A stretch of 63,959 bases of DNA, filler included, from Folioceros fuciformis (lineage: Eukaryota), in the NCBI GenBank assembly GCA_049999805.1. It is 7 parts of 7 records of this genome, joined end to end, with 100 filler letters (N's around TTAATTAATTAA, not from the genome) between each part and the next. Parts side by side here need not be neighbours in the genome. Positions count along the whole stretch, not along the records: positions 21,686 to 32,261 come from JBNGIO010003118.1; 6 more parts are not named here. One strand, written 5' to 3'. The notes beneath the pieces were generated by a model. The model was not told the origin of the DNA and ran no database searches. It was given only the letters and a program-made list of their open reading frames with translations. The number at the start of each line of letters is the position of its first letter. The stretch's first letter is position 1. Positions 6,530 through 62,464 of the stretch are shown here, in pieces. The position numbers and the translations under genes were made by a program.

Positions 6530-9500
6530 CCCCTTCGTAAGAATATCTGCAGGGTTCTAACTGGTGTGAACTTTGACAAGCTGTACCCTCTTATCTTCCA
6601 ACACCTCTCAAATGAAGTGATACTTCACTTCCACATGTTTGGTCTTCGCATGAGACACTGGATTCTTTGCCAATTGGATAGCACTCTGGCTATCACAATG
6701 CAACACTGGCAGCTCAACCTTGATCCCCAAATCTCCCACTAAACGAGCAAGCCACATGGCTTCCTTGCAAGCCTCAGTCGCTACAACATACTCGGCCTTT
6801 GTGGTAAATAGCGTTATTCACGATTGCAAACGAGATCGCCATGAGACTGCCCCTCCAGTGCACATGAAGACATAACCTGATGTGGACCTCCTTTTGTCCA
6901 TATCCCCTGCATAATCAGCATCCGTATATCCCACGACAGATGCATCTTCACTACCAAGACATAAGCACAAAGCTTTTGTACCATTTAAGTACCTTGTATC
7001 TCCTTTCACTGCCTCCCAATGCTTCCTGCCAGGGTTTGACATAAACCTGCTAACCACTCCCACTGCAAAAGCAATGTCAGGACATGTAGCAATCATTGCA
7101 TACATCAAATTCCCTACATCTGATGAGTATGGAACCTTCTCCATTTCAGCTTTGTCCTCTGCAAAGCTTGGGCAATCCTTGCTCAAAAGTTTCACATATG
7201 GAGGCAACGGAGTACTCATTACCTTCCCCTTCTTCATGTTGAAACGTTGAAGCACCCTGTTAATGTATTCAGTTTGAGACAAGTAAAGCAAATGCTTATG
7301 TCTGTCTTGACAAATACACATGCCAAGAATATGGCTCTCCCAAGTCTATCCTATCAAAGCGAGCATTCAAGTCTATCATGTCAAAGAGAGCACTCTGGCT
7401 ATCACAATGCAACACTGGCAGCTCAACCTTGATCCCCAAATCTCCCACTAAACGAGCAAGCCACATGGCTTCCTTGCAGGCCTCAGTTGCTACAACATAC
7501 TCGGCCTTTGTGGTAAATAGCATTATGCACGATTGCAAACGAGATCGCCATGAGACTGCCCCTCCATTGCACATGAAGACATAACCTGATGTGGACCTCC
7601 TTTTGTCCATATCCCCTGCATAATCAGCATCCGTATATCCCACTCCAAATGCATCTTCAATACCAAAACATAAGCACAAAGCTTTTGTATTATTGAAGTA
7701 TCTCATAACTCCTTTCACTGCCTCCCAATGCTTCTTGTTAGGGTTTGACATAAACCTGCTAACCACTCCCACTGCAAAAGCAATGTAAGGACGTGTAGTA
7801 ATTATTGCATACATCAAACTCCCTACAGTTGATGAGTATGAAACCTCTTCATGTCAACTTTGTCCTCCATAGAGCTTGGGCAATCCTTGCTCGAAAGTTT
7901 CACAAATGGAGCCAACGGAGTACTCAATACCTTCCCCTTCTCCACGTTGAAACGTTGAAGCACCCTATTAATGTATTTAGTTTGAGACAAGTAAAGCAAA
8001 TGCTTATGTCTGTCTCGACGAATACGCATGCCAAGTCTCTCCCAAGTCATATGACTTGGGAGAGAATATAGCTTGCCTCTCCCAAGTCTATCATGTCAAA
8101 GCGAGCATTCAACTTTGACTTCAACGCTGAAATCTCATCACTGCTAGTCCCAGCAATTAGCATATTATCCACATAGAGGGCTAGAATGAGCAAGCTTCCA
8201 TCCTTAGCTTGCTTTGTATAGAGGCAATGATCCTCTTTGCTACGTTTGTAGCCTTGAGAAAGCATAAATGAATGGAACTTGTAATACCACTCCCTGGGTG
8301 CTTGTTTCAAACCATAAAGGCTCTTCTTTAACCTGCACACCATATTCTCTTTGCCCTTCTCAATGAAACTCTGGTTGCTACATCTATACCTGTTCCTGGA
8401 GATCACCATGCAGAAATGCCGACTTCACATCCATCTGGACAAGTTCCATGTCATTCCTCGCAACTAGAGCAAGAACACATCGCAAGGTGGTCATTATGAC
8501 AACTGGTGAGAAAATCTCATCAAAGTCAATACCTTGCTGTTGCTTAAAACCCTTAGCAACCAATCGTGCCCTGTACTTGGGTTTGCCATAATGGGGTATG
8601 TCCTTCATCTTATACATCCATTTGCATGGCAATGCCTTCTTACCCCTAGGCAACCAAACCAACTCCCAAGTTTGGTTCTTATAGAGCGAATCCATCTGCG
8701 ACTGCATCGCCTTCTCCCACTTGTCCTTGTCAGTCATTGACATGGCCTCTTGGTAACAAGAGGGCACCCCACAATCCGTCAGCATGACATAATCAAGAGA
8801 TGCAACATACCTATCAGGAGGACGTGAGATCCTTCCTGACCTCCGAAGCATAGGCGCCTCGACCGGAGCTTGTTGCACTCGCTCCTCTTCTACAAGTGGA
8901 GGAACGGGTTCCTGCACATCACGACGTTCAACCTGCCTTGGACGATCAAGTCCATCTTCTTGGAAGACCACCCGTCGCACCTCCACTGTTGGAGTAGGCT
9001 TCTTGTGCATCTTGGTCTTATTGAAGAACACGTCGTTGCTGCGAACAACCCTCTTCGCCTCTGGATCCCATAGACGGTATCCTATCTCACCAGACTCACC
9101 ATAGCCAAGAAAAATACATTTCTTTGACTTGGGTGCCAACTTGTCCCGAAACTCCTTTGGGACATGGTAGTATGCCTCGCAGTCAAACACTCATAGATGC
9201 TTGTAAGACGGCTTCTTTCCAGACCACAACTCCTCTGGAACCTCTCATCCACAGCCTTATTAGGAGATCTGTTAATAAGATGCACCGCAATAGCCACTGC
9301 TTCTGCCCAAAATCCGTTAGTCAATCCATAGTTTGACAACAAAGTACTCACCTCTCCTGGATGGTCCTGTTCATCCGTTCAACCACACCATTTTGGGGAG
9401 GAGTATACGGGGCAGTCAATTCTCTCTTGGTTCCCTTGGAATCACAGAATGACTGAAAAGCCTTCGAAACGTACTCCCCCATTGTCTATCCTTAGACACT

Positions 9501-11158
9501 TCAGTCGGAGGCCAGACTGATTCTCCACAAGGGTGATGAACTTTTGAAACACTGTCATGACATCATCCTTTTTCCTCAAAGGATAAACCCACACCTTGCG
9601 TGAGAAATCATCTCTGAAAGTGACAAAATAGGATGCACCGCCTAATAATACAGCGGGCGCCTAATTATCCACAAACGTCACTGTGAACCAATTCAAGAGG
9701 TTTACTTTGTGTTTACCTCTTGCTCCATGTGGTGACTTCGTATGTTTCCCATACAAACAATGCTCACACACGGAGAAATCGGAGAAGTCAAAAGCAGGGA
9801 CGTAACCAAAACAAGATAAGATTTTCATTCCCTTTTGAGACATATGTCCTAACCGACAATGCCACAAGGAAACACTTGGCTATTCCGTTACACAAATCAC
9901 ATGATCCTTGATAGTGGTTACCTGAAGTGAGTACAAAGTGCCACACTTCGATCCACAAGCTAACACAAGAGAACCTTTAGAGATCTTCCAAGAATGATCC
10001 CCAAACCAACAATGGTAGTCAGTGTCATCCAACTGCCCTACGCTAATCATGCTTTTTGTCAACTTCGGAACATGCCTAACATCCTTTAGTACGAATGAAG
10101 ACCCATTGTCAAACTTCAGTTGCACATCACCAACGCCTGCAATCTCGCATGTGTAGTTATTCCCAAGCCGAACACATCCTTTCCTAGTAGCATCATAGGT
10201 GCTACACCACTCCCTATGCGAAGTAACATGGAAAGATGCTCCAGAGTCAATTTTCCAATTAGAGAATAAGTGACTATCCACGGCTGTCATTTGTGCAGAA
10301 TCGAAGGAAGAAGAGATAAGAACATCTCCATCGTCAACAAAATTCACCTCATCATGCTTGATACTCGGACTTGTCTTGTTGTCGTTCTGCTTCTTCTTCT
10401 TTCCTTTGTCCTTCTTGAACTTCTCGCAGTCCCTTCTGATGTGACCCTTCTTGTAATAATGGTAACACTCAACATTGTTACGACTACGAGATTTGCTACG
10501 GGAAAGACTTCGCTCCTTGTACTTCCCCTTTGAAGTGGACCTTCCTCTCACCATGAGGGCATTGGAACCTTTCGAAGGTTCTATATTCTTCCTGTTCACC
10601 TCCTCTGTTAACAGGCTACCTTCTACATTTACAATGGTGAGACCACTGGTAGGAGCGGAATTACTCAGAGCTGTACGAAAGGTGTCCCAACTCTTTGGTA
10701 ATGTGACCAACAGAAATATAGCTCTCACGGAATCTGGGAACGAGATACCTTGAGATGAGAGCTGGCTAAAAATGGTATTGAACTCATTCAGATGATCAAA
10801 CATCCTCGTCCCTTCCTTCATCTTCAAGTCCACCAGCTATTTCAACCAATATACCTGAGAAGCCGCACTTTGCTTCTCATACAGGTCACACAACTTCTGC
10901 TATAGCTCGTAACTTGTGGTCTTGTCTTTCACATTGAAGTAGACCGACTTCGACAATGTTAGCATGATGGTAGACCTAGCAAGCTCATCTAGATCCTGCC
11001 ACTCATACTGGGTCATGCTAACAGGTTTCACTCCTAGCAACTTTACGGGCTTGATCTGCTTCTTCTACACTAGAACATTATACACTTGTTCTTTCCAGAA
11101 CATGAAGTTAGTACCATTTAACTTCTCGATATTGAACATAACGTTTTGAGGACATCAT
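6530..11158 (-). pseudogene. Copia B gag-pol (Tnt1-like), with an internal RT/RH duplication
   Basis: Gag (LVTLPKSWDTF), IDSGASFH protease, WHCRLGH integrase, YRARLVAKGFKQ/LYVDN RT and DADYAGDMDKRRSTSGY RNase H, the last present twice. Many stops. Confidence 0.93.
6679..8105. repeat. Internal ~710-bp tandem duplication of the RT-end/RNase H segment
   Basis: gcactctggctatcacaatgcaacactggcagc... starts at ~6680 and ~7390. ORFs 6818-7321 and 7296-7817 encode near-identical peptides. Confidence 0.9.
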
Positions 11159-11960: not shown

Positions 11961-14900
11961 GAAGGAACCATTCCCAAGCCCACCGCTAATCCGGCTGCTA
12001 TTGATGCTTGGGTTTGTCAAGATCGATAGGCCATGCAGATGTTGATCTCTGGCCTCGATGAGGTTACCTTACATCACACAGATGGTGCGTCCACATCTGC
12101 TGAAGCTTGAAAGCAAATCACTAACATCTATCAATCCACTAGCGTGATGACACTAGTCACGGTACGCTTGGAATTCTATTCTTTGCGCATGGGCCCCAAT
12201 GATAGCATTGTTGAGCACGTTAGCAAGTTTCGATATTTGCGAGCCCAACTTGCTGCTCTTAGGACAACCATTACCGAATTTGAAGTTGTTGTTCAGTTAT
12301 TGGCTAGCCTCCCGGCTAGCTACCCTACATTTATCTCCTCACAAAACCAAACGGTGAGAAATGCACATCAAGCTGTGCAGTTGGGTATGGTACCCAACAT
12401 CATCATGTCCAAGATCGTTGGAGCTCTCCTTCAAGAGGAGTCTGCCAGGTTCAATGTCAGGGCTTCAAAACATGGAGGCGACCAGATCATGTTCGTCGCC
12501 AAAGGACGTCAACAACAGCGTATGCCTTCTAACAAATCTAATAATAGGAACAATTCCCATGGCTCCAAGAAGCCTTCTTCCTCTGCAGCCTCCTCGTCCA
12601 AGACTTCTAAGCAACAAGGCACGTGTAATTGGTGCCAAACGCCCGGTCATTGGGAACGAGAGTGTAGGAAGAAGCAAGTTGGTGAGGCCAAGCGTGCACC
12701 GCGTACAGCTAACATCGTTGCTGTCTCGCCCAAGGCCAAGAATCCTTCTTCACCTGGAATTGCTCTCACTGTTTGTCTTGTGGCATTTGAATACAGACAG
12801 TCATGGCTGATTGATTATGCTGCATCAACGCATATCTGTAATCACAAGACCATGTTCACCACCTACGAGGCGGCTACTGACACTTAGCGCTTCGTCCTCC
12901 TTCGAGATGACTCTGGTCTCTCTATTGTAGGGATTGGCTCCGTTGCTTTTACTCTGGATGACGGATCCCTCATGGTGCTTTCTCAAGTTTTACATGTTCC
13001 CCAAATGGCCAAGAATCTCATCTCTGTCCGACAACTTGTTCGAGACGGCTCCTTTTATCTTGAGTTTGGGTTTGGAGATTGCCTTCTATATCGGTCCTCT
13101 AAACCTCGTGTGATTGTTGCTAGAGGTCGTCCCCGTCATGACTTGTATGTCTTCTCAGGTCAGCTCGTGCTTACAACGGCTGCCTCCCTTGCGGTTTCCG
13201 TTCCTGACAACCAACCTTCGAGGAGATCCCACCCCGGTGACGCTCTCCTTTGGCATTGTCGGCTTGGACATCTTAATCCAGCCCGGCTTTTGGCCATGAC
13301 TCAGCAGGATCTGAATCGGGATAAGCTTCCAATTCTTTCCTCGACACCACCTCTTTGTGAAGCTTGTGTGCTTGCAAAATAGAGAAGTTCTCCTTATCCT
13401 ACTCTTCCTGCTAGTCAATCCACTACGCCTCTTGACCTAGTCCATGTAGACTTATGTGGTCCTCTCCCTGTTGCGTCTTTAGGCGGGGCTAACCATTTTA
13501 TGACTATCGTTGATGACTTCAGTCGATATACGTTTGTGTTTCCCTTATGTCTTAAGAGTGACTCGTTTAATGTGTTCTCACCTTTTGTTGCTATGGCCGA
13601 GTTAGGGACTAGCCGTCAACTTAAATGTATTCGATTCGACAATGCGGGGGAACTCAACAATCATCAATTTTGTGATTTCTGCGAGGCGCGTGGTGTCTTG
13701 AGGCAATTCACTGTACCTTACACCTCTGAGCAGAATGAAGTGGCCGAGAAGGCTGACAGCAATTTGATGTCCATGGCTCGTGCCATGCTGACCCAGTCTC
13801 AGCTGCCCAAGTCCTTTTGGGCTGAGGCCGTGTCTACTGCAGCATACATTAAGAATAGGGTCCTTACCAAGACGGTTTTCGGTACACCCTACGAGTGTTG
13901 GCATGGGACCAAGCCTCTAATTTCACATCTTCGTGTTTTTGGTTGCCCTGCCTATGCTCTTGTCCCTTCACAGCATCGTGACAAGCTTGACACTCGTGCT
14001 TGGAAGCTTGTCTTTGTGGGCTATGGTGATGATCGCAAAGCCTACAAGCTCGTGGACATGGCCACTCGGACTCCAATCTATGCGCGCATTGTCACTTTTG
14101 ATGAAGCCAAGCTAGTGCCTGCTCTTGGGACACCCTTGGAGCTTCCTCCTGACGTCTTTGATGGTGCTTCCTTTGGCTCAAGCAGGTCCGGTGCCACTAG
14201 TTGCTGGTCGTGTTCCACACATGCAGCCCGCTCCTTCGCCACATGTTCCTGCTCGAGAGGAGGACATGGAGATAGACTACGAGGGAGTAGCGAAGGACCT
14301 ACCTGTGGAACAAGGTGATGTTGAACATGTTGGTTTTGATCAAGTGGTGCCTCATGATATTCCTCATGCACTCCACACTCCTCCATCCCCTCCTAGGCCA
14401 ATGGCTGCTCCTAAGCGTAGATATCCTACTCATGTGCCTAGGCACCTTTGGAAGGAACAACCGTTTGACGTTGAGTTTAATCAAGCTGGTTTAACCTATG
14501 TAGATTCAATGGATGCTCTCTATGCCTTAAGTGTTGCTGCTGTAGAGGGAGATCCTTTAACCTTGCAGGAGGCTTACTCCAGACCTGAGGCAGCTAAATG
14601 GAAGTTGGCAGTCGATGATGAGTATAACTCATTGATAAAAAATAATATCTGGTCTCTGGAGAGCCTGCCCAAGGGTAGAACTACCGTCAAGTGCAAATGG
14701 GTTCTTAAGACTAAGTTCCAGGAAGTTGAGCCTAGAATTTGCTACAAAGCAAGACTAGTGGCTAAGGGGTATAGTCAGAAAGAGGGAGTTGATTATCAGG
14801 GCGATAAGGTTTTCTCACTTGTACTTAAAGCCACAGTAGTTAGGATGCTTCTAGCTTTATGTGCTGAATTAAACTTAGAGATTTATCAGCTAGATGTGTG

Positions 14901-16409
14901 CACGGCCTTTCTCTATGGTCATCTTCAGGAAGAGATCTACATGAATCAACCTGAGAATTATGAAGAAAAGACGTACCCACACAAGGTGTGTAAACTCAAT
15001 CGCTCCATCTATGGACCCAAGCAAAGCCCACGTCTGTGGTATGAGAGGATGGACACTTATCTTAAGAAAATAGGTTTTATCCAAAGTGAAACTGATACTA
15101 ACATCTATGTTCTACGCAAGGATAGTTCTCTTGTGCTAGTCGCTCTCTATATGGATGACTTGGTCATTCCAGGAAATAACGTAGAACTAGTCAACAAGAT
15201 CAAGGCAGACCTCAGCAGGGAATTCAAGATGAAAGACCTGGGAAAGGTTAAGCATATCCTTGGCATGCATGAACATAGAGATAGTACAGGTGTTATTTAC
15301 CTTCATCAGGGTAAATACGTAGCTGGTATGCTCAAACACTTCAACATGGAGAGTGCAAGGGCGTTAACCACTCCAGGTGCCTTTGGTGTCAAGCTCTCAT
15401 CTGCCTCATGTCCACAATCTGAAGAAGATAAGAAAGAGATGGAGAATACTTACCGTATGGCTGTTGGTACTCTTATGTTTTTTGAGTAATTAGACAAGGC
15501 TTGATATCTCCAACACTGTAAATGCAGTTGCTCAGTTTTCTGAAAACCTAGGAAAGGATCACTGGGTAGCTCTCAAGCGTATCATGAGGTACCTCAAGGG
15601 CACACCCAATTATAGTCTTTGCTATAAACCCAGCGGGAAGAAGCATCTTAAGCTCACTTATTATGTAGATGCAGACTGGGCCTTTAACGCTGATACTCAA
15701 AAAAGTATATTGGCTTATTGTTTTCTGGCCAACTCCTCTATGGTTAATTGGTCATGTAGAAAACAAGCAGCCATCCCCCTGTCTTCCACATAGTCTGAGT
15801 ATAAGGCACTCACCGAAGCCACTAAGGAGGCTGAGTGGGAAAGGAAGCTTTGTGAAGACTTGGGTATGAAGCAAGAAGGGCCGACAATCTTGCATTGTGA
15901 CAACATGTCAGCAATTGCTTTGGTTGCTTACCCTGTCTTCCATGTACGCACCAAGCATATAGAAATTCAACATCATTATATTCGGGATGCTGCTGAGAGA
16001 GGTATCGTCAAGGTTCAGTATATACCTACCGACGACAACACAACAGATGTCCTAACCAAGTCCTTGCCTAAGTTCAAACACTGTTTTCACAAAGAAGGGC
16101 TTGGTTTGGTGGATTGTAGTAGATACATGACATTAGACAAATCACTTATATGGTAGGACCTTTCACTACACAAATATTCCGTCACTTAGGTTGATGATAC
16201 GAAGCAGTTGGCATGCTTCTCTTCTGGTCACTGGAGTGGTGTTCTACTTTGTGAGATCCTGTAAACTATAGGCTCTATAAGAGTGAGGACTACCGACTCT
16301 AGGTAATAGCCGTTTTGAAGATGTTTAAAGCTTGGCGTCAACAGCAGTGATCTCCGTTTGTACTAAGGAGCTCTCTTCTAACAGCAACCAGTACGTGTCT
16401 GAGAGGGAG

Positions 16410-21585: not shown

Positions 21586-21685
21586 NNNNNNNNNNNNNNN
21601 NNNNNNNNNNNNNNNNNNNNNNNNNNNNNTTAATTAATTAANNNNNNNNNNNNNNNNNNNNNNNNNNNNNNNNNNNNNNNNNNNN
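21586..21685. other. Artificial contig spacer
   Basis: N44-TTAATTAATTAA-N44, identical at six places. Confidence 0.98.
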
Positions 21686-22499
21686 ATACAGGCGACGTTT
21701 GGAAGTCGATGTCAGGACCTTCTGAATCATCGGAAACAAAGCATCAAGACATGAACGAAGAAGATCAGACTTTCAACTTCAACAAACAAATGCCCGTCTT
21801 CAACCAAAGTCGTCGCCTACCTTGAGAGTTGAACTCCAATGTTTTCGTCGGCACCATGTCACATGAGGAAGAAGCCTGCCAATCCATACCAATGTCGCAC
21901 TGATTAACCGCAAAGGAGCTTCCTTGCAGGATGCATTCTACCGTCACTCACCGATTCATTGAATACAGGTTACGCTGGCATAATTAAGCTGCCTTTTCGA
22001 TATGAACGTTTGATCACCATAACAAATAGCTATTGTTTGTCGGGAACGGCGCCTATAATCGTTGTTCTGGCATAAATGCTGAGGACGTTGTTCAAACACT
22101 TCTCCTATTTCAGGCAACACAAATTCAACTTCACAGTTGACTTCAAATCTGTTTGTTGAATGCTTAAGCCATTCCTCAGTGCTTCTGCATCAGCCCAGGT
22201 GTTTTGAAGTTTTCTCATTCCCTTCCTCTCATGCGTAGTCGAAGATGGCAGCTGGCCGGCGTAGCAACAAGTAACTGAGTGCGGCCATTGATATGGAAGT
22301 ATTGGAGGCACCATCAAGGTTGAAGAAACCATGACAGGGGGGCGAAAGCTTTAGCTTGCGTTGCATTTGGCCCCATCGTTGAAAAAGAAAACCAGCGGCA
22401 ACCAGCAATCACAGTAGGCGATGTTACACCACAGCCACCAGCTCTAATATTGAGGAAAGACAATTCACGAGGGAGCGTCCGTGCCCCGAACAGCAAAGC

Positions 22500-22993
22500 T
22501 AGTGAGGTTCATATTAACCATGTGCCTGTGAATGTGACTCAGGGTGGCAGCACTGGTGGCAGTCAGAACCACAAAATTCCAAATGCATACAACTTTGTTG
22601 AGCGTTTGAAGCTAAAAAAAACTTGAAGACACGCTTGCCAAAAGGTTCAACACAGACAAAGAGTGGTTTTTAGTCATCGAAGAGGAGCCAGAAGACTACA
22701 ATTTGCCCTGGTTGCCGCTTGTGGCTCTGTGGATTAACGGTTTCCAAGGCTTGCAAGATGATGAGGCAGGGAGGCCTGGGTGGATTCTCTATGCATCCGT
22801 TGACGGCGTGGAAGACGAAACACATGTCAATTTCATCTGCACGCGGCACCCACCAAGCCATATTACCGATGACTACGATAGCTACAACCTGATTGTGGTC
22901 AATGTTGCGAAAGCTGTGCCACGATACTGTGAACCGACGTGGCTAAAAACGGCTTTGAAAGATTGTCTGAATGTGCAAGATGTTAGTATATGA
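22500..22993 (+). pseudogene. Unidentified ORF remnant upstream of the ParB-MTase gene
   Basis: ...AYNFVERLKL / LEDTLAKRFNTDKEWFLVIEEEPEDYNLPWLPLVALW...CLNVQDVSI*, with a frameshift in an A-run at ~22615. Confidence 0.35.
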
Positions 22994-23212
22994 TTAGCTG
23001 AATGATTTATTTAAGTTTATTAACCCAGCAAACCCTAAACCCTAATTACTTGCATCCTGTGGGTCGAACAAGAAGGCGAACAATTCTGTCGAACTGTCTT
23101 GCGCTTTGTTGCCGATTGCGTCCTGAAGAATCGAGCCCTTGCATCCAGGATCACCGGAGAGCGCCAACGGATTTCCACCCATGCAGATTTCGGCGGCAAC
23201 GCTGGAAGGCAG

Positions 23213-26200
23213 ATGGAGAGGCTGGTGGAGATGCCGCGCATGCAACCAGAGCTATCGAAAGACGAGCTACGTGAGGTGGAGGAGCTGAGCAGTGACCAAG
23301 AGAAGGAGATGGGTGGTTACTCCTCCACCGAAGACAGCCATATGAGGCTTTGGATGCTGCACAAGGCTCAAGAGATGAACAAGAAGAAGAAGAGGAGACA
23401 CCCGTGGAGGTGATGCCACCCAGGAAGAAATAGAAGACGGTGCGCCGGCCTACCGACGCTCTAGTGCAACGGAAGAAGAAGATAGGCAGGACCTCTCAGG
23501 CGAGGTCGCGGAAAAGAGCCACGGGTTGGTGTCATGGTAATCCTTCTGCAATTTGGTTCTGTTGAATCTAGTTTCTTGTCAAGGAAGGGTAGACATCTAG
23601 TGTAACAGCGGATGTGGTTTAGTGGCAGCATTACCCCAGAAGAGGAAGAACAGGTCGGTAGGTCCTGTCAACGAAGCTTCTGCTAGGCGAAAGCAGAGGC
23701 GGCAGGCTCAAGGGCCTACTTTTGAGGAGGAGCTGCCCCAAACAGTGGAGACAGGCGCTGAACGGATGGAGAGGGTTGCGCAAGATGAGGACTATCTCAA
23801 TGCTGTAAGAAGAAAAGTGCATGCGAAAAGGATCCACTCGATGACATTTGATCTTCATGTAGATATTCTCCACCCAGCAAGTTATATAACAGCGAAGTGC
23901 CTGGTTAGGCAGATGCAGTCAGGGTCTGTGAAGGAAGGTATTTTACCTCTCCTTTGCATGATAGATCCGAAACAGGCTTCTAAGAAAGAAGATGTTTTGC
24001 TGGAGAAGATCACAGTGCAGGGTTACCAGATGGGAGTGCTTGGAGGCAACCATTGCTTCGTAGCTATGCAGAAGCTACATCAGATGTACCCAGCAGAGGA
24101 CAAGTACGAGTGGATGGAAGGGCATGTTTATGCAGGACTGACGGATGAGGAAATGCGAGTCCTCGCAGTGGATCACAACGTTTTTGCAGACAAACGGAAG
24201 AGGATGGGCTTCATCGAGCAAGTACGATACATCCACAATGAGTTGGATATTTTTTACAGGAGCCACGGATTGGACGAGAAGCCACCAGTGAAGTGGAAGT
24301 TTAATCTCTACAGGTTGCTGGGGATGACGGATGAGGCAAGTGATCCACGGGACACTGACTAGGTGCAGAAGATAGTAGATAGGCAAACACTACCATATCG
24401 GGTAGCAAGGTGCAGTGGAGTCCTTTGGGAAAATGTTGACAGGATTTTCAAGATGTGGGAGAGAAGCGAGCTTCCTGAACAGGTAGCAGGATGGAGCACA
24501 GGCACGAAGAAGCGGGCCAAAGCGAAGAGGAAACTAGGGGAAGCTGGCATAGCTTTCAGTAGCACCCCTATGGCTGATGAGTCCATGAAAAAGGTGACAG
24601 CAATGCAGGGCACGCCGGGGAGGGCTTTTCAAGGAGTCCCAACAGGTGCAAAAGGCGAGGAGATGCTGATCGCAGTAACTCAGAAAGTCATCCAGGGAAA
24701 GCTCCAGCTGAAGGACAGGGACGCAGAGGTGGGCAAAAGGAAGACGATTCACCTCATACAGCATGCATTCCGGATAGCTCTTAAATGTGCAACCTTTGAA
24801 GAAGCTAAGCAGTTATACCCCAAGCATATTGAAGACGCGAATCTCCTTCGATTCCAGACGGCCTTTGCAAAAGTGGTAAGTTTCCTTTCAGATGCTTCAG
24901 TGTTTTCAACTAATGTTGGACACTTGGTAGGTTGGCTTGGCCAGTGGCTGGAGTGCCCCGGTAGATCGGCTCACTCCAGCCGCTATAGGGGACCAAGGGC
25001 GGAGTCTGGTTGGAGTGCGCAGGTCTATCAACGCCCTCCAGCCACCGTGCTGGTAGTATGACAGAATTTAGCTGGAGTGCGCCGGCCTACCGGCACCCTC
25101 TAGCCAGATTCTAGCCAGATTCAGGCCAGAAGCAGACACTCAGGCTGGAGTGCGCTGGTCTACCAGCGCACTCAAGCCTTACGCTGGCCTTGGTCTTTCA
25201 TTATGGCTGGAGTGCGCCGGTCGACTGGCGCACTCCAACCATCTTGACTATAGAAATTTACATATTGTGCTGACAAAAATGTTTGTTGGCAAAAACCTGC
25301 AGATATAAACGACCTGGAATCTTTGCCCAAACCGTTCCAGGATTACATGTACTCAGCGAGGAACTAGAAACGGATGGAAGAAGAGAAGCAGAAACTCGCA
25401 GACGCAAATATGGATGCTGGACTATTCGAGTTCAGAGTCCCTAACAACAACCAAAAAATGAAATATCAAGTGATGCAGCGAAACGTTCTGGAGATGAGCA
25501 AATTTCTGGTAAAGAGACCATATACCCTTTTATTCGCTGATTTGCCTCGAGGTCTCCAACGACATGACTTTGATAGACAGTTGACTAGCGAGGACCTTGA
25601 AGACATGATAAGGGGGTTTTCTGAATGCACAAGTAGTAATGTGTATCGAGTGGTCCTCATGCATGGGGTGGACCTCATCTCATAGGCGAGAGAGGCACTT
25701 AGGCCATGGTGCAAGAAAGGCACCATACAGACATTGGTTTGGGAAAAGACCAACATTCCTCCGAATGCAAGGGCAGTGAAGACTGTGGAGTACCTTACAG
25801 TTGGAAGTGCAGTCCACTCGGAAGCTCAGACCACCAAAGCAGCCTTATTTGCGAATTAGGGATTTCTTCTGCCGAGAGGGATAAGGCATGGTGCTATCGT
25901 GAAAAAACATCTTTTTCACTCGGCCGATTCGATGGTCGTCTCCCCATATCAGAAGCCATTGGGGTTAATGGGAATGCTGGTGAACATTTTTTGGCTAAAG
26001 GAGACTGGGTAGTGGATGCCTGCGCAGGATATGGATCATTCCTTCAGGCTGCAATTCAGAGGGGGAGGCATGTTGTCGTGATGGACGTCGATATACGATG
26101 CACGACATACATGATGCAGAGAGTGAATGGACTTGGATCTTTGCCAGACGCTGATGAAGAGATCAGCACAGACCCCTTCTCGCATGGGCCCACGAAGTTT

Positions 26201-26497
26201 TGGGCCAAAGAAGTCTGCGCGGACGGTAGTGTGGATCGACGGATGCAGGTGTACAGTTTGCTGGGGAAGAAAGGTGAAGTTATTACTCACTCGGACGATA
26301 GACCAGCGGAAGATCTGTCTGCGATGACCACTAGGGATGAGAATGGCACGCTTCCGTCTCAAACAGTGGACGACCCACATTTCTTGGTTCTGGAGGTGGA
26401 AGGAGACGACTTCGGCGACACAGAGGGCCAACGCCTAAAAGATGTAGAGACAGTTGTCGATTCTGAGGCCATCCAAGACGTACATGACTTGATATAG
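23213..26497 (+). pseudogene. Spliced ParB/Srx-like domain fused to beta-class N6-adenine/N4-cytosine DNA methyltransferase (N6_N4_Mtase-like)
   Basis: ParB-like VLGGNHCFVAMQKL...VYAGLTDEEMRVLAVDHN at 24036-24180. MTase motifs appear in beta order: LLFADLPRG (DLPR at 25539-25550, DPPY-equivalent), LVWEK, SPYQKPLGLMGMLV, GDWVVDACAGYGSFLQAAIQRGRHVVVMDVD. Probable introns at ~23537-23608 and 24876-25302. In-frame TAG stops and a frameshift at ~25990. The start codon is uncertain. Confidence 0.82.
24946..25240. repeat. Regularly interspaced palindromic array: 5 x 36-bp repeats with 26-nt spacers
   Basis: Repeats at 24946-24981, 25008-25043, 25070-25105, 25143-25178 and 25205-25240. Consensus GGCTGGAGTGCGCCGGT-NN-ACCGGCGCACTCCAGCC. 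Spacers are 26, 26, 37 (26 plus an 11-bp duplication ctagccagatt) and 26 nt. Confidence 0.92.
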
Positions 26498-26859
26498 AGA
26501 ATATTTGAAAGTAGTTGCATTTGTGGTACAATATGCCTTTATTTAAATTTGACTGGTAAAGGTTTTTAATTCATAGCATGCACATAGCCAGCTTCTTTTT
26601 ACTGAACCACACTGTTCAGTGCGCCAGTAGACTGGCGCACTCGAAGGACGATTCGGTTTTTGTACAAAATTTAATCGGTCTTCTACTTTATGCTTCAGTT
26701 GGATTGTGATGTTTTGGTTATTTGTGATTATATGTGGTGTCCACCACAAGTCCAAACAATATGTTTTTTAAAAGACAGCTTAAATGTGGATATGTGACGA
26801 GGATGGTGTAAATTCAAAAGTGCGCCAAACGGGCTTCATGGAATACGACCATTAGGCGC

Positions 26860-29800
26860 AGACCTTGTTATAGGGCTGAACAGTTTATTTTCCTCGTAGT
26901 CGAATCCAAGGATCTATGTGAAGCCTCGTGCCACCAGTATCGCTTTATGCCTTGCCACTGTGCCGTCTGAGTTGAGTTCCCTTTGAAAAGTCCATTTACA
27001 GGAAATGGGTTTCCTCCCCTCAGGTAAGTCTCCATGTTTTGTTGTTGATGAGGGAATCGTATTCGGATTGAATAGCAGTTGTCCACTCAGGGGAAGAGAG
27101 GGCTTCATCAATGGAGAGAGGTACACCTTGCATTTCTATGGCTGATAAGGCCTGATGGACAGCTTCGTCCAATGGATCGGTGTGAGGATGAGAGGTGGCT
27201 GTTGTCTCTGATGATATCCTATTGACGAGTGCGTCTCCAAGGGAGTATGGTGGCTCCTTCCACTCATTTCTTGGGGGTCTATTCCTGGAGGATCTTCTTA
27301 CGGCTTCTGGTGGAGCAGGCAAGGTGGGTTCAGGGTTTACCTGAGCTTGTATGACTGGCTGGTTGAATTCGGTGTCATCCGAGAAAGGAATGGAGGGAGG
27401 TAAGTTTGATTGCTGTGGTATTTGTATAGGCTATAGGCTAACCTGTGTGGGGTGAATTGGCTGCTAGATTACTGGTATGAGATGAACTGGATGTTGGATT
27501 ACCTCTTGAGATTGGTTCTCACTATTGTAGTATGCGGCCCCTTCAAGCTCAAGAGGGGGTGCAATTGCACAGTGACCAAAGATACTAGGTGCTGGAAGAG
27601 GAGCAGAAGTGAGAGAAGACCGGAAGAGGACATTGAGTAAGTGAGATTCATTAAACTGGATGCTTCGGGAATGTATTACCTCTCTAGAGCTAGGGTCAAA
27701 AAGTCGGTAGGCTTTAACCTGATTGGAGTACCCTATGAAGAGCATCTTGCGGCCTTTGTCGTCCCACTTGCGTCTAGTTTCTGCGGCAATGTGGGCAAAG
27801 GCGGGGCTGCCAAAATGCGTAAGTGGGATACTCTGGGTTTGTGGCCTGTCCATCGTTCGAAGGGTGTGATGCTGGGGAGCTCCTTCATAGGGAGCCTGTT
27901 CTTAAGGTAAATTAGAGGTTGACACGGCTTTAGCCCATTTACCTTTAGTGAGTCCAGCAAGCTTGAGCAGAGATCTTGAGATTTCGAGAAGGGAGCGATT
28001 GAGGCGCTCAGCAAATGGGTTTTGAGCAGGAGTGTAAGGTACCATGTATTGCCTCTAAATGCCCTTTGATTTGCAGAATTCCTGGAATGCTTTGCTAACA
28101 TACTCGCCTCTGTTGTCTGTGCGTAGGGTGGCAACTTGGAAGCCTGTTTGTCTTTCTAGGCTGAGGAGGAAGTCCTGGAAGCATGAGAGGGTGGTGTCCT
28201 TGCGCTTGTACACGTGACTATACTACTCCACTCGTCCATGAAGGTGATGAAGTAGCTGTGGCCACCAAAAGATTCAGTGCTCATGGGTCCGCATACGTCA
28301 GAGTGGATGGTTTCCAACAGGTGTCGTGCTCGTGTGGGGGAAGGATCTTTAAAAGGTAACTGGTTCAGCTTTGTGTATTGACATATTTTGTAGCACAGGG
28401 TCCTTGCACATGGTAGGGTTGGCGAGCATGTTTAAGTATCAAGGGTTCATGTGGCCTGCTCGGCAATGCCAAGGGACTCGTTCGGAGATGTGGGGGAACT
28501 ACTATCGGCTAGCAGGGAAGTGGATTGAATGTTGAGGAGGTATAGGTCGTTAAACGGGAGTCCATGGGGTAGGGTGACCTGGTTCAGATCCTTGCTATGA
28601 TGGACTGTGTAGTGATTTCCCTAAAAGGTGATGATGAGGTCATGCTCTGTGGCTAGTTTACGGACTGATAACAAATTTTTTGTCATGGCATGGACGTGAA
28701 GGATGCCATTGATGGTGAGAAGTTCACCATTGGATAAACAAAGCATGACCTCTCCTGAACTGTGGATAGGAAGGGCACTATCATTCCCAAGAAGGACATG
28801 CTGGTATGAGAGAACTGTGTGATAGGAGGTAAACATGTTACGATAGCTACATATGTGGGTTGTGGCCCCAGAGTCTAAGAACCAACGACTTGTGTCTGTT
28901 GTGGTAAGTGTAAGACATACTGCTAGTATGGAGTTGGCTGGTGGTGACTTAGCTGTGGTTATGAAGTGAGATTCATTGCGTGGTGCTTCCCTTTGAGGTT
29001 TGCCTGCCTGCTTCTTGCGACATTCGCCCTCGTAGTGTCCAATGATCTTACACCAATTACATGCTCCTTTACTGATGCGCCTATCAAAAGGCTTGCTTTG
29101 TGGAAACTGTTGGCTGGGAAAGCCAAGTAGTTTGTTGAAGACTGGCCTCTTCTGTTGGAGAAACCTCCTCGTCGTCCATCGCGTCTGTTACCCCTTCCGC
29201 AAGATACAAACAGGGCATGGCTGGTGCCGGCGTTATTGCGAGTGATCCTGGTTCTGCTCGACTCTTCTTCGAGTAATGCTTCAACCACATCCGAGAAAGT
29301 GTAAGCCGGTGGTGCGTTTGCTCTGACCGCTTGGATTGCTTGTCTCAAGGCCGAGTTTTGTGAACTAACAAAGTTCCTGTATGATGTAGGCATAGATTTT
29401 AGAAGGGCGACTACTACCTGAAGCTCTGTGATGATGGTGCCGCCGCTGGAGAGCTTTGCTCGCTGGGACCGGAAAACATTCACGTGATGTTCAACACTAT
29501 TGTCGTCCTTCATCTTGAGTGAGTAGAACTGTCTTGTGGCGTTAATAAGAGACATAGAGCTCTGTGCTTGGAACATATCGTTAAACGCTTTCCACACATC
29601 GTGTGAGGTCGTCTGACCTTGGGTGTGTTGTAGCATTGTCTTGTCAATCGCAGATATCAAGATGTTTCGGGCTCTCTTATCTCTCCTATCCCAAGTAGCT
29701 ATCTCGTCGGGGGTAGATGGTATTGCGGAGGTGAGAGAAGGCCGTAACAAGGTACCATATGTGATTGACATTAGAACGTGTTCCTCTAACAGAGCAGTAA

Positions 29801-30507
29801 TTCTTATGTGCCAGATATCGCGTAATCGCTTCTTGTGAAGGGATCACAGTCTCTAAATTCTACTTTGGTGGTGTTAATCACCGTGGAAGCAGGATTAGGG
29901 ACAGGATGAGCCATGGTTGCTTTGCTTGTGAGCTTTGCTGATTTCTTGGCAAGGAGTTTAGTTGTGTGAGAAGCATGCGGATCAAATTTGGGCATAGGAA
30001 GTAGGAAGATGGGATGTGTCTAATTTACATCTGTCTGTGGACAGGGATGCGACGGATTGCGAGATGAAGGGCCTCGAGCTGTGACTCGATGCAATTCAGT
30101 TGAATTCTGAGATAATCAGGTGTAATTGGTATGCTGGCTGGAAACAGGGCAGTGTATGCGCATCTATGTGAGTGGGAGATGGGCCTAGTAGCCACATTCG
30201 TTGCGCACGGCAGTGGAGCAATGGGTCGTGTGCGCTGGCGGCGGCGTCGCTTGTCGCGAGTGATCCACTCTATGCAGTTTGTGCAGGGTGTTCCCTTTGT
30301 GGCAGATGCGTGGCCGGCTGGGGCAGATGACGCGGGAATGTGCCGCCTCGGCATTCTCGTTTGCTTAGGACCTTTGGCTCTCGGGGCCCTCTATTTGTTG
30401 CATATCCATGGTGTGTAGTGTTGCAACACCAGTGTCGTGAAGCGGCTGCGAGGTCAAGGGGTGGAGAGCCCTTGGGCTCTGATACCATGAAAACGCACAA
30501 GAACAAC
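26860..30507 (-). mobile_element. Ty1/copia element C, truncated within RT
   Basis: PBS at 30476-30487 and a ~20-bp LTR stub. Gag at 28959-29870 (RRDKRARNILISAID, LLKSMPTSY). Protease WFLDSGATTH, integrase (TPFERWTGHKP) and RT start (KAILVARGFT) follow, ending at ~26860. Confidence 0.9.
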
Positions 30508-32261
30508 ATTCGCTCCGTAAGAACCAAACGTGGGAGTTGGTTTGGTTGCCTAGGGATAAGAAGGAATCACCATGCAAATGGGTGTATAAGATGAAGGTCA
30601 TACCCCATGATGGCAAAGCCAAGTACAAGGCGTCATTGGTTGCTAAGGGTTTTAAGCAATAGCAAGGTATTGACTTTGATGAGATTTTCTCACCAGTTGT
30701 CAAAATGACCACTTTGCGATGTGTTCTTACTCTGGTTGCGAGGAATGACATGGAACTTGTCCAGATGGATGTGAAGTCGGTATTTCTGCATGGTGATCTC
30801 CAGGAAGAGGTATATATGCTGCAACCAAAGGGTTTCATTGAGAAGGGCAGAGAGCATCTGGTGTGCAGGTTAAAGAAGAGCCTTGATGCTTTGAAACAGG
30901 CACCCAAAGAGTGGTATTACAAGTTCCACTCATTTTTGCTTTCTCAAGGCTACAAACATAGCAATGAGGATCATTGCCTCTGTACGAAGCAAGCTAAGGA
31001 TGGAAGCTTGCTCATTTTGGTCCTCTATGTGAATGATATGCTAATTGCTGGGAGTAGCAGTGATGAGATTTCAACGTTGAAGTCAAAGTTCAATGCTTGC
31101 TTTGACATGACAGACTTGGGAGAGGCAAGCCATATTCTTGGCATGCGTATTCGTCGAGACAAACATAAGCATTTGCTTTACTTTTCTCAAACTGAATACA
31201 TTAACAGGGTGCTTCAACGTTTCAATATGGAGAAGAAGAAGGTATTGAGTACTCCGTTGCCTTCATATGTGAAACTTTCGAGCAAGGATTGCCTAAGCTC
31301 TGCGGAGGACAAAGCTAAAATGGAGAAGGTTCCATACTCATCAGCAATAGGGAGTTTGATGTATGCAACGATTGCTACACGTCCTGACATTGTTTTTGCA
31401 GTGGGAGTGGTTAGCAGGTTTATGTCAAACCCTGGCAAGAAGCATTGGGAGGCAGTAAAGGAGTCATGAGGTATTTAAATGGTACAAAAGCTTTGTGCAT
31501 ATGTTCTGGTAGTGAGGATGCATTTGTCGTTGGATATACACATGTTGATTATGCACGGGATATGAACAAAAGGAGGTCCACATCATGTTATGTCTTCATG
31601 TGCACTAGAGGGGTAGCCTCATGGTGATCTCGTTTGCAATCGTGCATAACGCTATCTACCATAGAGGCCGAGTATGTTGCAGTGACTGAGGCTTGCAAGG
31701 AAGCCATGTGGCTTGCTCGTTTAGTGGGAGACTTGGGGATCAAGGTTGAGCAGCCAATGTTGCATTGTGAAGCTAGAGTGCTATCCAATTGGTGAAGAAT
31801 CCAGTGTTTCATGCGAAGACCAAACATGTGGAAGTGAAGTATCACTTCATTCGAGAGGTGTTGGAAGATAAGAGGGTACAGCTTGTCAAAGTTCACACCA
31901 GTCAGAACCCTGGAGCTCTCTACGGAGCAATTTGCACAAGCTCGGACACTCATGGGCATGAGGTAGACCACTCTCCTATGAAGGTAAATTGGCCTTTAAG
32001 TGGGAGTTGTAGGGTTATTAAAGCCCAATGTGCTTAGACTAATGTGTTTAGTCTAAGATTAGTGTCTAGTTAAATATCATTTGTTTAGATTAGCTAAGCT
32101 AATCTTTAGGAAGCTTCTTGTGCAGCTTCTTGTGCGCTTCTTGTGAAGCTTCCTTGGGAGCTCTTCTACAGGGTATAAATACCCTCTTGAGCTCCCTTGC
32201 AATTGAGATTGTGTGAGAGTGTGAGACCTCTCTTTCTTCTCTCCTCCTTGCTTCCTCCTCT
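30508..32261 (+). mobile_element. 5'-truncated copia B-family copy (RT-RH, PPT, 3' LTR 32008-32261)
   Basis: ORF 30705-31469 is near-identical to the copia B RT. The LTR starts tgtagggttattaaagccc as in copia B and runs into the gap. Confidence 0.92.
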
Positions 32262-32361
32262 NNNNNNNNNNNNNNNNNNNNNNNNNNNNNNNNNNNNNNN
32301 NNNNNTTAATTAATTAANNNNNNNNNNNNNNNNNNNNNNNNNNNNNNNNNNNNNNNNNNNN
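32262..32361. other. Artificial contig spacer
   Basis: N44-TTAATTAATTAA-N44. Confidence 0.98.
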
Positions 32362-35423: not shown

Positions 35424-38400
35424 CTAAACTTGACCCGCGGCTTGACGTTGGGGTGTTCCACTCTTTGCTTCACTAATGGGATGCCTCTCACCACACAGAA
35501 ATCTGTGAACAAAACCGTCTACATCTGTCCACGAAGTTTCACCTGGCTGCTTCCATGCCTTTATTCTGATTCTTCTAGCCTGCGTCTCTTCTGCATGCAT
35601 CCACATTTGGGCACCGGAATATATGTTCCACATCAATACATATGCTGCCGCGTCGTCCTTGTCCAGTTTCACTGCCAGGTCGAACGCGTAGCGTCCTACT
35701 CTTACATTGTTCCACTTCCGACAAGCACCCAAGATCGTGTGCCACACTGTAGCATCAGGGAGTACAGGCATTCCCCTCACCACAGCCAGTGCCTCATCCA
35801 GTTGGCCTGCACGGCCCAGGAGATCCACCATGCATGTGTAGTGCTCCACTGCGGGAGTGATACCATACTGGACACTCATAGCCTCGAAATACTCTAGCCC
35901 CTTGGTTACTAGACCCGTATGACTGCATACCATCAGTACACTGAGGAACGTTATGCCATCTGGACTTACGTCATCTTCCTTCATTCTAAGAACCAACTTA
36001 AAGACCTCTTCACTGTCTCCTTGGTGGCTGTATCCGGCAATCAGTGCATTCCAGGCGACAAGGTTCCTCTCGGGCAATGCCTCAAACACCTGCTGGGCCT
36101 CAACAATGCTCCCGGACTTGCTGTACATGTTTATCAAACTGCCAGCCACAAACAGATCACCTTGAAGCTGTTGTGATTTGATCTGTTCATGTAGCTGCCT
36201 TCCCAGATGCAAAGCTGCAGCATTTGCACATGCGTGCAGGAGACACACAAATGTCATGGAATTGGGTACAGCAGTGCCGTCTTCTTTCATGGCACTGTAA
36301 AGACAAAGGGCTTCCTGGCCCATGCCCTGCTGAGAATACCCTGCTATCATGGCATTCCATGTCACCACATCCTTTTCAAGGAGTCCGTCAAAAACTTCCC
36401 GAGCATCCTTCAGGCTACCACACTTTGCATACATCTTTACCAAACTGTTAGCAACAAACACATCAGATTCATGTCCTCGTTCTGTGATCTCCACATGAAG
36501 CTGCCTCCCCATCTCCAACGCTGGAGAGCCCACACTCGCACACGCCTGCAGGAGAGACACAAATGTCACAGAATTGGGTAAGGTCATGCCATCTTGCTGC
36601 ATGACACTGTAAAAGCACAGAGCCTCAAAGCTTTTGCCCCGCTGGGAATAGCCAGTTATCATCGAATTCCACGTCACCACATCTTTTTGTCCCAGCCCAT
36701 CGAACACTCTCTGCGCATCCTCTAGGCTGCCACATTTTACGTACATGTTTACCAAACCGTTCACTACAAATGGATCAGGTTCATGTCCTAGGTCACTGAG
36801 TTGTGCATGGAGCTCCTTCCCTTTCACCAAACCTTTGGTGCCCAGACTTGCACACGCCTGCAAGAGGCACATGAAAGTTATTGAATTGGGTGCAGCAGTG
36901 CCATCCTCTTGCATAACACTGTAGAGATGAAGGGCATCCTCACCCATGCCTTGCTGGGACAAACCTGCTATCATGGCATTCCACGTCACCACATCCTTCA
37001 CATAAAGCCCGTCAAACACTCTCTGGGCATGTTCCAAGCTGCCACACTTTGCATACATATTCACCAAGCTACTGGCCACGAAAACATCTGCATCATGTCC
37101 TCGTTCTGTAATTTGCAGATGCAGCTGTTTCCCCTTTTCTAGACCTCGGGTGCCAACACTTGCGCATGCCTGCAGGAGCCACACAAACGTCACTGAATCT
37201 GGTACAGCACTCCCTTGTCCTAGCATCGCGCTGTACAGATGAAGGGCTTCCTGGACCAAGCCCTGCTGGGCATACCCTGCTATCAAGGCATTCCAGGTCA
37301 CTACATCCTTGTGACCAAGTCCGTCAAACACTTGCTGAGCGTCTGCCAAGCTACCACACTTGACGTACATCTTCACTAAATTGTTGGCTAGAAACTCGTC
37401 AGCTTGGTGTCCATGTTGTGCGATTTGTCTATGAAGCTCCTTCCCGTTTTCCAATGCTACGGTTCCCACCCTTGCACAAGCATGCAGAAGATGCGAAAAT
37501 GTTACAGAATTAGGTGTAGCCATGCCATCTTCTTGCATGACACTGTAAAGACTAAGAGCTTCCTGGTCCATGCCCTGCTGAGAGTAGGCACCTATCATGG
37601 TATTCCAAGTGACCACATCCTTTTTAGCTTGTCCATGAAACACTTCCTGAGCTTCCTCTAGGGACCCACACTTTGCATACATGTTCACCAAACTGCTTCC
37701 TAGAAGCACGTCATCTTGAAGCCCTTGTTCATTGATTTGTGCATGAAGCTGCTTCCCCTTCTCGAATGCTGGTTTGCCCACGCTTGCACATCCCTGGAGG
37801 AGGCAGACAAATGTCACAGAGTTCGGAGCAACGATATTTTCTTCTTCCATGGCAGTGTGCAGCCGAAGGGCTTCATGCCCCATGCCCAGCTGAGAATATC
37901 CGGCTATCAGGGTGCTCCATGTTACCACATCCTTTTTCGCAAGTCCATGGAACACCCTATGAGCATCCTCCAAGCAGCCACACTTTGTATACATGTTTAC
38001 CAAACTGTTGGCAACAAACACATCAGCTTGGAGTCCTCGTTCTCTAATTTGCACATGAAGGTGTCTCCCGGTTTCCAGAGCTGGAGTCCCCACACTTGCA
38101 CACGCCTGCAGGAGGCACACAAAGGTTGCAGGCTTCGGTAAAGTCATTCCTTTTTCTTCCATGACACGATAGAGATCAAGGGCCTCCTGTCCCATGCCCT
38201 GCTGTGAATATCCTGCTATCATCGCAGACCATGTTACCACATCCTTTTCACCAAGTCGGTGAAACAATCTGTAAGCATCTTCCAAGCTGCCGCACTTTAC
38301 ATACATGTCTATTAGAGTGTTGGCTACAAACACATCACCTTCAAGCCCTCGCTCTCGAAGCTGTGCATGAAGCTGTTTCCCCCTCTCCAGAGCCGGGTTG

Positions 38401-44486: not shown

Positions 44487-44586
44487 NNNNNNNNNNNNNN
44501 NNNNNNNNNNNNNNNNNNNNNNNNNNNNNNTTAATTAATTAANNNNNNNNNNNNNNNNNNNNNNNNNNNNNNNNNNNNNNNNNNNN
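44487..44586. other. Artificial contig spacer
   Basis: N44-TTAATTAATTAA-N44. Confidence 0.98.
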
Positions 44587-56382: not shown

Positions 56383-56482
56383 NNNNNNNNNNNNNNNNNN
56401 NNNNNNNNNNNNNNNNNNNNNNNNNNTTAATTAATTAANNNNNNNNNNNNNNNNNNNNNNNNNNNNNNNNNNNNNNNNNNNN
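56383..56482. other. Artificial contig spacer
   Basis: N44-TTAATTAATTAA-N44. Confidence 0.98.
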
Positions 56483-60278: not shown

Positions 60279-60378
60279 NNNNNNNNNNNNNNNNNNNNNN
60301 NNNNNNNNNNNNNNNNNNNNNNTTAATTAATTAANNNNNNNNNNNNNNNNNNNNNNNNNNNNNNNNNNNNNNNNNNNN
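60279..60378. other. Artificial contig spacer
   Basis: N44-TTAATTAATTAA-N44. Confidence 0.98.
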
Positions 60379-62364: not shown

Positions 62365-62464
62365 NNNNNNNNNNNNNNNNNNNNNNNNNNNNNNNNNNNN
62401 NNNNNNNNTTAATTAATTAANNNNNNNNNNNNNNNNNNNNNNNNNNNNNNNNNNNNNNNNNNNN
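62365..62464. other. Artificial contig spacer
   Basis: N44-TTAATTAATTAA-N44. Confidence 0.98.

Follow-up and report, generated by a model that had tools for sequence, protein, structure and literature searches.

The DNA analysed here (the window) is a stretch of 63,959 nucleotides from Folioceros fuciformis (assembly GCA_049999805.1), and its central feature is an array of five 36-bp palindromes that lies within a gene for a protein with a ParB-like N-terminal domain and an N6/N4-type DNA methylase. Six identical blocks of 44 N, TTAATTAATTAA and 44 N (21586-21685, 32262-32361, 44487-44586, 56383-56482, 60279-60378 and 62365-62464) resemble artificial linkers with stops in all six frames. The window thus consists of separate contigs joined end to end, and neighbourhood across the linkers is not real. 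The contig of the ParB-methylase gene occupies 21686-32261 (10.6 kb; JBNGIO010003118.1). A Pfam scan of the window covered 80 of its 98 open reading frames (ORFs) of at least 110 aa, 18 overlapping or antisense ORFs being left out, and all statements below on gene families refer to that set. It found several copia-type fragments, one PPR protein and one SUI1 fragment, and no cas, Nop, ParA or transposase families. The window is plant-type nuclear DNA, with copia elements, a PPR gene and GT-AG introns. The features of the gene locus are as follows, with palindromes numbered R1 to R5 and spacers S1 to S4:

23439-23466: solo copy of the palindrome core, decayed, within the gene's 5' ORF region, with a 16-nt exact match to R3 and a core score of 18/22 (family D2).
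23601-24875 (+): exon region that encodes the ParB-like N-domain and a helical region, has 54 remote homologues and is interrupted by an in-frame TAG at 24360-24362.
24876-25367 (+): putative intron that holds the array, GT..AG, phase 0, 492 nt.
24946-24981: palindrome R1, centre AG, arms paired at 14/17 positions, 3/34 positions off consensus.
24982-25007: spacer S1, 26 nt, matching the reverse complement of S4 at 14/26 positions in fixed register.
25008-25043: palindrome R2, centre CT, arms 12/17, 6/34 off consensus.
25044-25069: spacer S2, 26 nt, of which a diverged version lies between two palindromes in another genomic copy (by eye, joint 25237>25143).
25070-25105: palindrome R3, centre CT, midpoint of the array and tip of its long fold, arms 12/17, 5/34 off consensus.
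25106-25142: spacer S3, 37 nt, with an extra 11-nt tandem copy at 25110-25120.
25143-25178: palindrome R4, centre CT, arms 16/17.
25179-25204: spacer S4, 26 nt, with diverged versions in other copies (by eye, joints 25237>25205 and 25234>25141).
25205-25240: palindrome R5, centre CG, arms 15/17, 2/34 off consensus and thus nearest to it.
25368-26497 (+): exon region encoding the N6/N4-type methylase, interrupted by stops in frame at 25683-25685 and 25857-25859; the frame changes near 26000.
26618-26641: solo copy of the inner core, a perfect palindrome of 24 bp that lies about 120 bp 3' of the stop codon at 26495-26497, core score 20/22.

The array spans 24946-25240, and its palindromes start 62, 62, 73 and 62 bp apart, as found by sequence reading and by repeat finders. 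In the palindrome consensus, two central bases separate a 17-nt arm from its reverse complement. The spacers measure 26, 26, 37 and 26 nt, the longest being a 26-nt spacer enlarged by a local tandem duplication of 11 nt (TRF, 25099-25130, period 11, 2.9 copies). This geometry had been described in an earlier note on the same DNA and is confirmed here, together with the central dinucleotides (AG in R1, CT in R2 to R4) and the sequence CCTTGGTC, which is common to S4 and the reverse complement of S1 at an equal offset. The note's description of all five repeats as near-perfect palindromes holds better for R1, R4 and R5 (14, 16 and 15 of 17 arm positions) than for R2 and R3 (12 of 17 each). In R4 the two arms carry matching changes of CCGG, to CTGG and to CCAG respectively, so that arm pairing is kept. 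A 12-mer half-site, allowed up to two mismatches, has 16 matches in the window against 4.57 +/- 2.10 expected, and none of 100 shuffles reached 16; nine of the 16 matches fall in the array. A scan of the window with the 36-mer consensus scored at least 24/34 at the five repeats only. The array is real and non-random, and it is evolutionarily maintained.

The palindromes and spacers have diverged very differently. Pairwise identity of the palindromes averages 0.79, and each differs from a perfect-palindrome consensus at 2-6 of 34 positions. Since the changes are this few, and C>T or G>A accounts for 12 of the 19, nearly all palindrome divergence looks like recent decay of a dead copy; such an excess is what a dead, methylated copy should show after recent decay. 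In gapped alignment the spacers seem unrelated. In fixed register, the matches summed over all pairs and both orientations number 111, against 77.4 +/- 7.6 in shuffles and 78.4 +/- 7.6 in random 26-mers from the flanking gene (P about 0.0002-0.0003). The spacers are 38-54% alike in the best orientation (about 42% overall), with S4 reversed relative to S1 and S2. This residual homology in fixed register indicates that one 62-bp unit was duplicated long ago, in agreement with the ancient unit suspected in the earlier note. The array may thus have arisen through an ancient duplication of a single 62-bp unit, after which the spacers would have drifted near saturation, one of them being flipped by recombination between its flanking inverted arms; meanwhile the palindromes would have been kept identical and their spacing held at 26 nt. 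The two halves of the array show a mirror symmetry: R1-S1-R2 is 74% complementary to R4-S4-R5, and mirror spacer pairs match at 25 of 52 positions. A simple inverted duplication was considered for this symmetry and rejected; R2 and R4 share the centre CT, so inversion of a single spacer between inverted arms fits better.

The gene that holds the array is present as ORF pieces at 23601-24359, 24363-24875 and 25368 onward, all on the plus strand. Between the last two lies the putative intron. GTAAGT begins at 24876, and the reading frame is restored by an AG at 25366-25367; alignments with homologues break off at ...KV by 24876 and pick up again after 25437, and the relative P0003 reads 'VVS' at the intron start, as read-through of GTAAGT would give. 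At the level of sequence, the placement of the array in an intron of the ParB-methylase gene, which the earlier note had proposed, is therefore well supported. Both word-index homologue searches ('longer') gave no relatives. An exhaustive search with 23601-24362 gave 54 remote relatives at E <=1e-3, ten of them at 1e-10 or better. The sources of these ten were looked up: three are from Chara braunii, three from the fern Adiantum nelumboides, one is a JGI record and three are Logan records. Those of Chara braunii and a fern are closest in sequence, sharing 35-44% identity with the window's protein along some 100 residues. PF01555 (N6/N4 DNA methylase) was found at the Pfam cut-off in 4 of the 16 relatives scanned, C-terminal to the shared domain, and the downstream exons of the window align with the methylase parts of relatives (tblastn, blastp). 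A search of PDB sequences with the host protein gave nothing useful, and no viral or phage relatives of it were found. In the Protein Atlas, its matches are unnamed eukaryotic clusters and one ParB_N cluster (score 0.91), which serve as leads only.

The N-terminal domain was placed by structure prediction. Residues 81-200 of the model superimpose on ParB residues 37-132, with a Z score of 9.4 for 7bnk_B at a root-mean-square deviation of 2.6 over 88 aligned residues. The top 14 structural matches of the folded domain are all ParB, Noc, PadC or KorB, and Foldseek matches it with probability 1.00 (E 1e-3). As modelled, the host protein has the ParB/Srx N-domain fold. The window's copy of the gene is a dead pseudogene, with three in-frame stops and at least one frame change, so that any function belongs to intact members of the family. 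Its methylase motif IV reads DLPRG, against DAPYG or DFPYG in relatives. The ORF layout, and that only, points to a second frame change near 23400.

The gene is one of many. Contigs of three DNA runs (X1, X2 and X3) were placed on 24400-25800 at 80% identity or more, which gave 275, 248 and 166 matching contig pieces, respectively. Most of the pieces are less than 95% alike, with transitions dominating, which makes the gene a member of a diverged repeat family. This family, many-copy and transposon-type, has a ParB N-domain and an N6/N4 methylase; the host gene is one of its decayed copies, and its status as a pseudogenised member had been missed in the earlier note. Eleven joints in other copies have listed letters. 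Seven of these run from palindrome to palindrome at 26 nt and two at 46 nt, by arithmetic from the positions; the remaining two are a single intron-to-R4 joint found in two runs. By eye, some of the joint spacers are diverged versions of S2, S3 or S4. In other copies, palindrome joints skip or step back by whole units. At 24957, where R1 of the window is mutated, every placed copy carries the consensus G. Contig depth is low at 25011-25104, a dip that proves nothing because contigs break at repeated palindromes. Two joints, 25250>24931 (X1) and 25255>24929 (X2), consist of an R5-like palindrome, about 46 nt and then the sequence that precedes R1, which suggests that whole arrays are tandemly duplicated in some other copies. 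Run X3 shows C>T or G>A at consecutive positions, without counterpart in X1 or X2 of the same sample, as from a bisulfite-type library; its one contig over a palindrome-spacer joint keeps the CG cytosines, which hints at CG methylation of family copies.

Several of these observations are what a functionless foldback minisatellite would produce. In such a scheme a 62-bp palindrome unit was amplified in the intron by slippage or unequal exchange, and the palindromes were homogenised by hairpin-templated repair or short-tract gene conversion. The palindrome joints that differ among copies by the skipping or reversal of whole units, the recent 11-nt slippage duplication in S3 and the decay of the host copy to a pseudogene are all in keeping with it, as is the inversion of one spacer, which recombination between flanking inverted arms would yield. 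The scheme has more difficulty with spacing. The spacers have fallen to about 42% identity and yet, the one recent duplication aside, all four are without net length change; neutral sequence, we infer, should have gained insertions and deletions. Moreover, 36-bp tracts are short for efficient gene conversion, and slippage within an array leaves the solo copies 1.4-1.5 kb away unexplained. We regard a minisatellite as possible but on balance doubtful.

These solo copies lie at both ends of the coding region. The one at 26618-26641 is 92% identical to R5 over 25 nt in both orientations. By self-search and consensus scan, all seven core-like sites of the 64-kb window lie within 3.2 kb of this one gene, and the consensus scan found no palindrome core elsewhere in the window. 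The earlier note had held that its reading would suffer if the motif were an abundant satellite or miniature inverted-repeat transposable element (MITE) unrelated to methylase loci, or if the palindromes were conserved no better than the spacers. Within the window, the motif is confined to the gene locus, and the palindromes are conserved in excess over the spacers.

Sites near both ends of a transposon-type gene could also serve a transposase. The palindromes might be transposase-binding subterminal repeats, or a nested foldback element or MITE in which inverted termini, of this or another DNA transposon, abut with a 2-bp junction. Two 17-bp inverted termini can indeed be recognised in each palindrome, on either side of a 2-bp centre that is CT or AG in six of seven copies (four of the five array repeats and both solos), and foldback elements have arms built of tandem subrepeats. 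However, sequence reading revealed no target-site duplication or distinct element ends around 24946-25240, and no transposase was found among the scanned ORFs of the 10.6-kb contig. Comparable arrays in red algae, as far as the available text of the source describes them, track a ParB-domain gene across different transposon families, which also speaks against this origin. We consider it very unlikely.

The array might instead act as RNA. The segment 24930-25260 folds as one long hairpin of -183.2 kcal/mol, against -125.9 +/- 5.5 kcal/mol for shuffles (z -10.4; 0 of 100 as low), and as local hairpins only it reaches -148.0 kcal/mol. The intron might then form a long hairpin or a row of short ones, either diced into small RNAs that act on the family or bringing the splice sites together. 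The array lies on the sense strand of the putative intron, and Rfam offers, as its best hairpin look-alike, a sub-threshold structural match to the plant miRNA precursor model MIR1027 (43.8 bits). The fold energy adds no independent evidence, however, because any similar palindromes must fold in this way, and a low energy is inevitable for them. The MIR1027 score is far under the gathering score of 150, the alignment reflects common stem geometry only, and no Rfam family was found at threshold. Mismatches in the stem are compatible with G-U pairing in five cases on each strand; on the sense strand, G-U stands against A-C mismatches at 5 to 5, with no excess. Such equality suits a DNA-level constraint better than an RNA-level one. 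Solo copies also occur in the exon region and 3' of the stop codon. With no favoured strand, a structural-only Rfam match and solo copies outside the intron, a DNA-level role is favoured, and we judge an RNA element decidedly unlikely. The small guide RNAs that the earlier note had entertained find no support, given the lack of G-U bias on either strand, of a cas- or Nop-like gene among the scanned ORFs and of an Rfam family at threshold.

The same note had called the array CRISPR-like, and by geometry alone, with 36-bp repeats and spacers of one length, an adaptive guide array of the CRISPR or TIGR kind, with spacers acquired from invaders, could be imagined. CRISPR arrays consist of direct repeats of some 23-55 bp, a range that includes the 36 bp found here. 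Unlike CRISPR repeats, the repeats here are full 17+17 palindromes, and the spacers are diverged copies of one sequence which, by eye, are inherited among the copies of the family. The array lies in a putative intron of a eukaryotic transposon-type gene in nuclear DNA, and no cas or Nop gene was found among the scanned ORFs. The label cannot be kept, and this origin is exceedingly improbable.

No such array was found in viral, metagenome or prokaryote collections. In prokaryotes, the imperfect palindromes of REP/BIME elements, each of about 35 bp, occur genome-wide in clusters where short linkers separate them, and the array resembles them in its clustering and palindrome length. A scan of prokaryote genomes with two half-sites gave 77 loci, the best reaching 22/34 to the 36-mer with at most 11/17 arm pairs, and thus no counterpart. 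Among viral contigs, two half-sites 58-66 bp apart gave three loci, all unrelated phage repeats, and the single palindrome gave none. Two viral contigs (L001 and L002, near 560-745) carry a perfect 66-bp phage tandem repeat, the first 15 nt of which equal those of the plant half-site; the repeat is not palindromic, and kinship was rejected in favour of a chance match. Among metagenomes, the single palindrome gave 12 loci, each a solitary hairpin outside any array; they fall into about three conserved contexts of bacterial type. Seven of these, on marine-type contigs (L004-L006 and L010-L013, near 2001), share one conserved locus with a hairpin whose 24-bp core fits the degenerate pattern of the solo at 26618. 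The seven hairpins differ in the two loop bases only and form no array, which makes convergence on a GC-rich hairpin the probable explanation. In TIGR arrays, repeats of 8-12 nt alternate with dual spacers of 9 nt next to a Nop-domain gene, as given in the part of the source available (PMC12045711). A TIGR-Tas array was rejected, the architecture being different and no Nop domain being found among the scanned ORFs.

The explanation that we place first, and hold tentatively, is that the array offers DNA sites of dyad symmetry, set in a phased row, to a dimeric protein of the element; the ParB-like methylase is the most plausible candidate for that protein. The earlier note had proposed phased sites for a dimeric or ParB-like protein, and this part of it now leads on three grounds: the confinement of the motif to the locus, the retention of palindromes and spacing, and the ParB fold. 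There would be one predicted binding site per 62 bp, about six helical turns, and the array would act in cis, as a DNA element belonging to a repeated gene family of transposon type. The ParB-like module could nucleate on the palindromes, that is, on the intronic array and the two solo sites that flank the coding region. Nucleation would concentrate the fused methylase on the element's own DNA, and the element would thereby mark itself.

A model for such an arrangement exists in bacteria. The sopC/SopB system of F has tandem, helically phased repeats next to a parB-type gene, each with an inverted-repeat site for a ParB-family dimer; the units are 43 bp long, are conserved throughout and contain a 16-bp site. 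In the window array, by contrast, only the 36-bp palindrome of the 62-bp unit is conserved, and the host is a eukaryote. No ParA-type ATPase partner was found among the scanned window ORFs, and with a gene contig of only 10.6 kb a partner could be elsewhere. In ParB-parS systems the sites are short and dyad-symmetric, are often arranged in tandem within or close to the parB gene, and are loaded by the protein in a CTP-dependent manner; at the present locus, a ParB N-terminal fold is likewise combined with tandem dyad sites in the gene.

Closer parallels come from eukaryotic mobile elements. Algal transposons encode ParB-domain proteins, in fusion or in linkage with DNA-modifying enzymes, according to the available portions of two reports (10.1101/2025.02.11.637652; PMC12477816). 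In the preprint among these, as far as its available text goes, Plavaka transposons of the red alga Bostrychia carry a ParB-domain accessory gene, PAG3 (ParB-like domain and 2OG-oxygenase), with adjacent tandem inverted-repeat arrays, and a PAG3-type protein is proposed to bind and modify its own element (10.1101/2025.02.11.637652). On that description, PAG3 and the window gene share a ParB-like N-terminal domain joined to a DNA-modifying domain, a linked tandem inverted-repeat array and the same proposed logic. They differ in that the window gene has an N6/N4 methylase rather than an oxygenase, resides in a land-plant-type host and has its array within an intron rather than beside the gene. 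The excerpts available also describe a ParB-like accessory gene with an N4C/N6A methylase on Sola1-1_Ec32 of Ectocarpus (PMC12477816), and ParB-fused methylases of chlorophytes and chytrids that were traced to phage loci (Iyer et al., 2016, PMC4738411). These have the same two-domain architecture as the window gene, lie on eukaryotic mobile elements and are thought, in the same excerpts, to derive from phage ParB-methylase loci. The cis array is present at the window gene and goes unmentioned for Sola1-1_Ec32 and for the chlorophyte and chytrid genes in the portions of those reports available (PMC12477816, PMC4738411). By analogy, the array and its gene appear to belong with these recently noticed transposon ParB accessory systems, here in an intron of a land-plant-type genome. 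We found no report in the literature of such an array in land plants, in streptophytes or inside an intron.

Several points weigh against a row of sites for the ParB-like methylase. Binding itself, the identity of the binder, spreading along DNA and methylation are all steps that we infer. The binding protein could be a transposase or a host factor, because the transposon superfamily and its ends were not found here. Pfam detected no ParB family in the window's own ORFs, its only match there being a weak one to FtsJ at the S-adenosylmethionine (SAM) motif. A second model took in the next exon as well, the in-frame stop being entered as X. Its helical part, C-terminal to the N-domain, matches the DNA-binding domains of SopB, ParB and KorB weakly and over nearly the full length (Z 4.6, 3.8 and 3.8). 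All three scores lie below 5, where chance matches of helical models are frequent; these matches are compatible with a ParB-type reader domain without demonstrating one. The parS and sopC sites measure 16 bp, and the 36-bp palindrome is more than twice that. The linkage of motif and gene was judged within the 64-kb window rather than genome-wide, X1, X2 and X3 are one sample, and the fragmentation of contigs at repeats limits what comparison with other copies can show. Finally, some phage ParB-like partners of DNA-modifying enzymes have no obvious DNA-binding domain, according to the part of the source available (PMC13229309).

If the array is a row of sites for the ParB-like methylase, a bacterial-type site-specific loading system would have been reused by eukaryotic mobile DNA for self-directed chromatin marking. 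A fuller form of this proposal is a self-addressed epigenetic module of bacterial or phage ancestry, borne by a land-plant transposon family, in which a ParB clamp fused to an N6A/N4C methylase loads on its own centromere-like intronic array and the solo sites, spreads, and writes a mark other than 5-methylcytosine, perhaps countering host silencing. In this full form we think the proposal unlikely; were it true, it would provide a eukaryotic ParB/parS-like system with a defined site sequence. The idea that algal ParB accessory proteins bind their own elements is based, in the available text, on one sentence of a preprint (10.1101/2025.02.11.637652). The present locus offers a concrete candidate for such a site in a streptophyte lineage, namely a 36-bp palindrome whose inner core measures 24 bp, at fixed 62-bp phasing and with signs of evolutionary constraint.

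The window has several further features. Fragments of copia-type LTR (long terminal repeat) retroelements (gag, integrase, RVT_2) lie at 8050-10836 (-), 12111-15486 (+), 27023-29843 (-), 30663-31466 (+), 52627-55524 (+) and 57066-60012 (+). One copia fragment is located immediately 3' of the ParB-methylase gene on the same contig. The plant-telomere-type heptamer AAACCCT is repeated 2.3 times at 23030-23045, just 5' of the first ORF piece of the gene. On another contig, an uninterrupted ORF of 1701 aa at 35427-40529 (-) contains PPR repeats and a C-terminal E motif (PPR_2, E 1e-196); it encodes an unusually long PPR protein of the plant organellar RNA-editing type.

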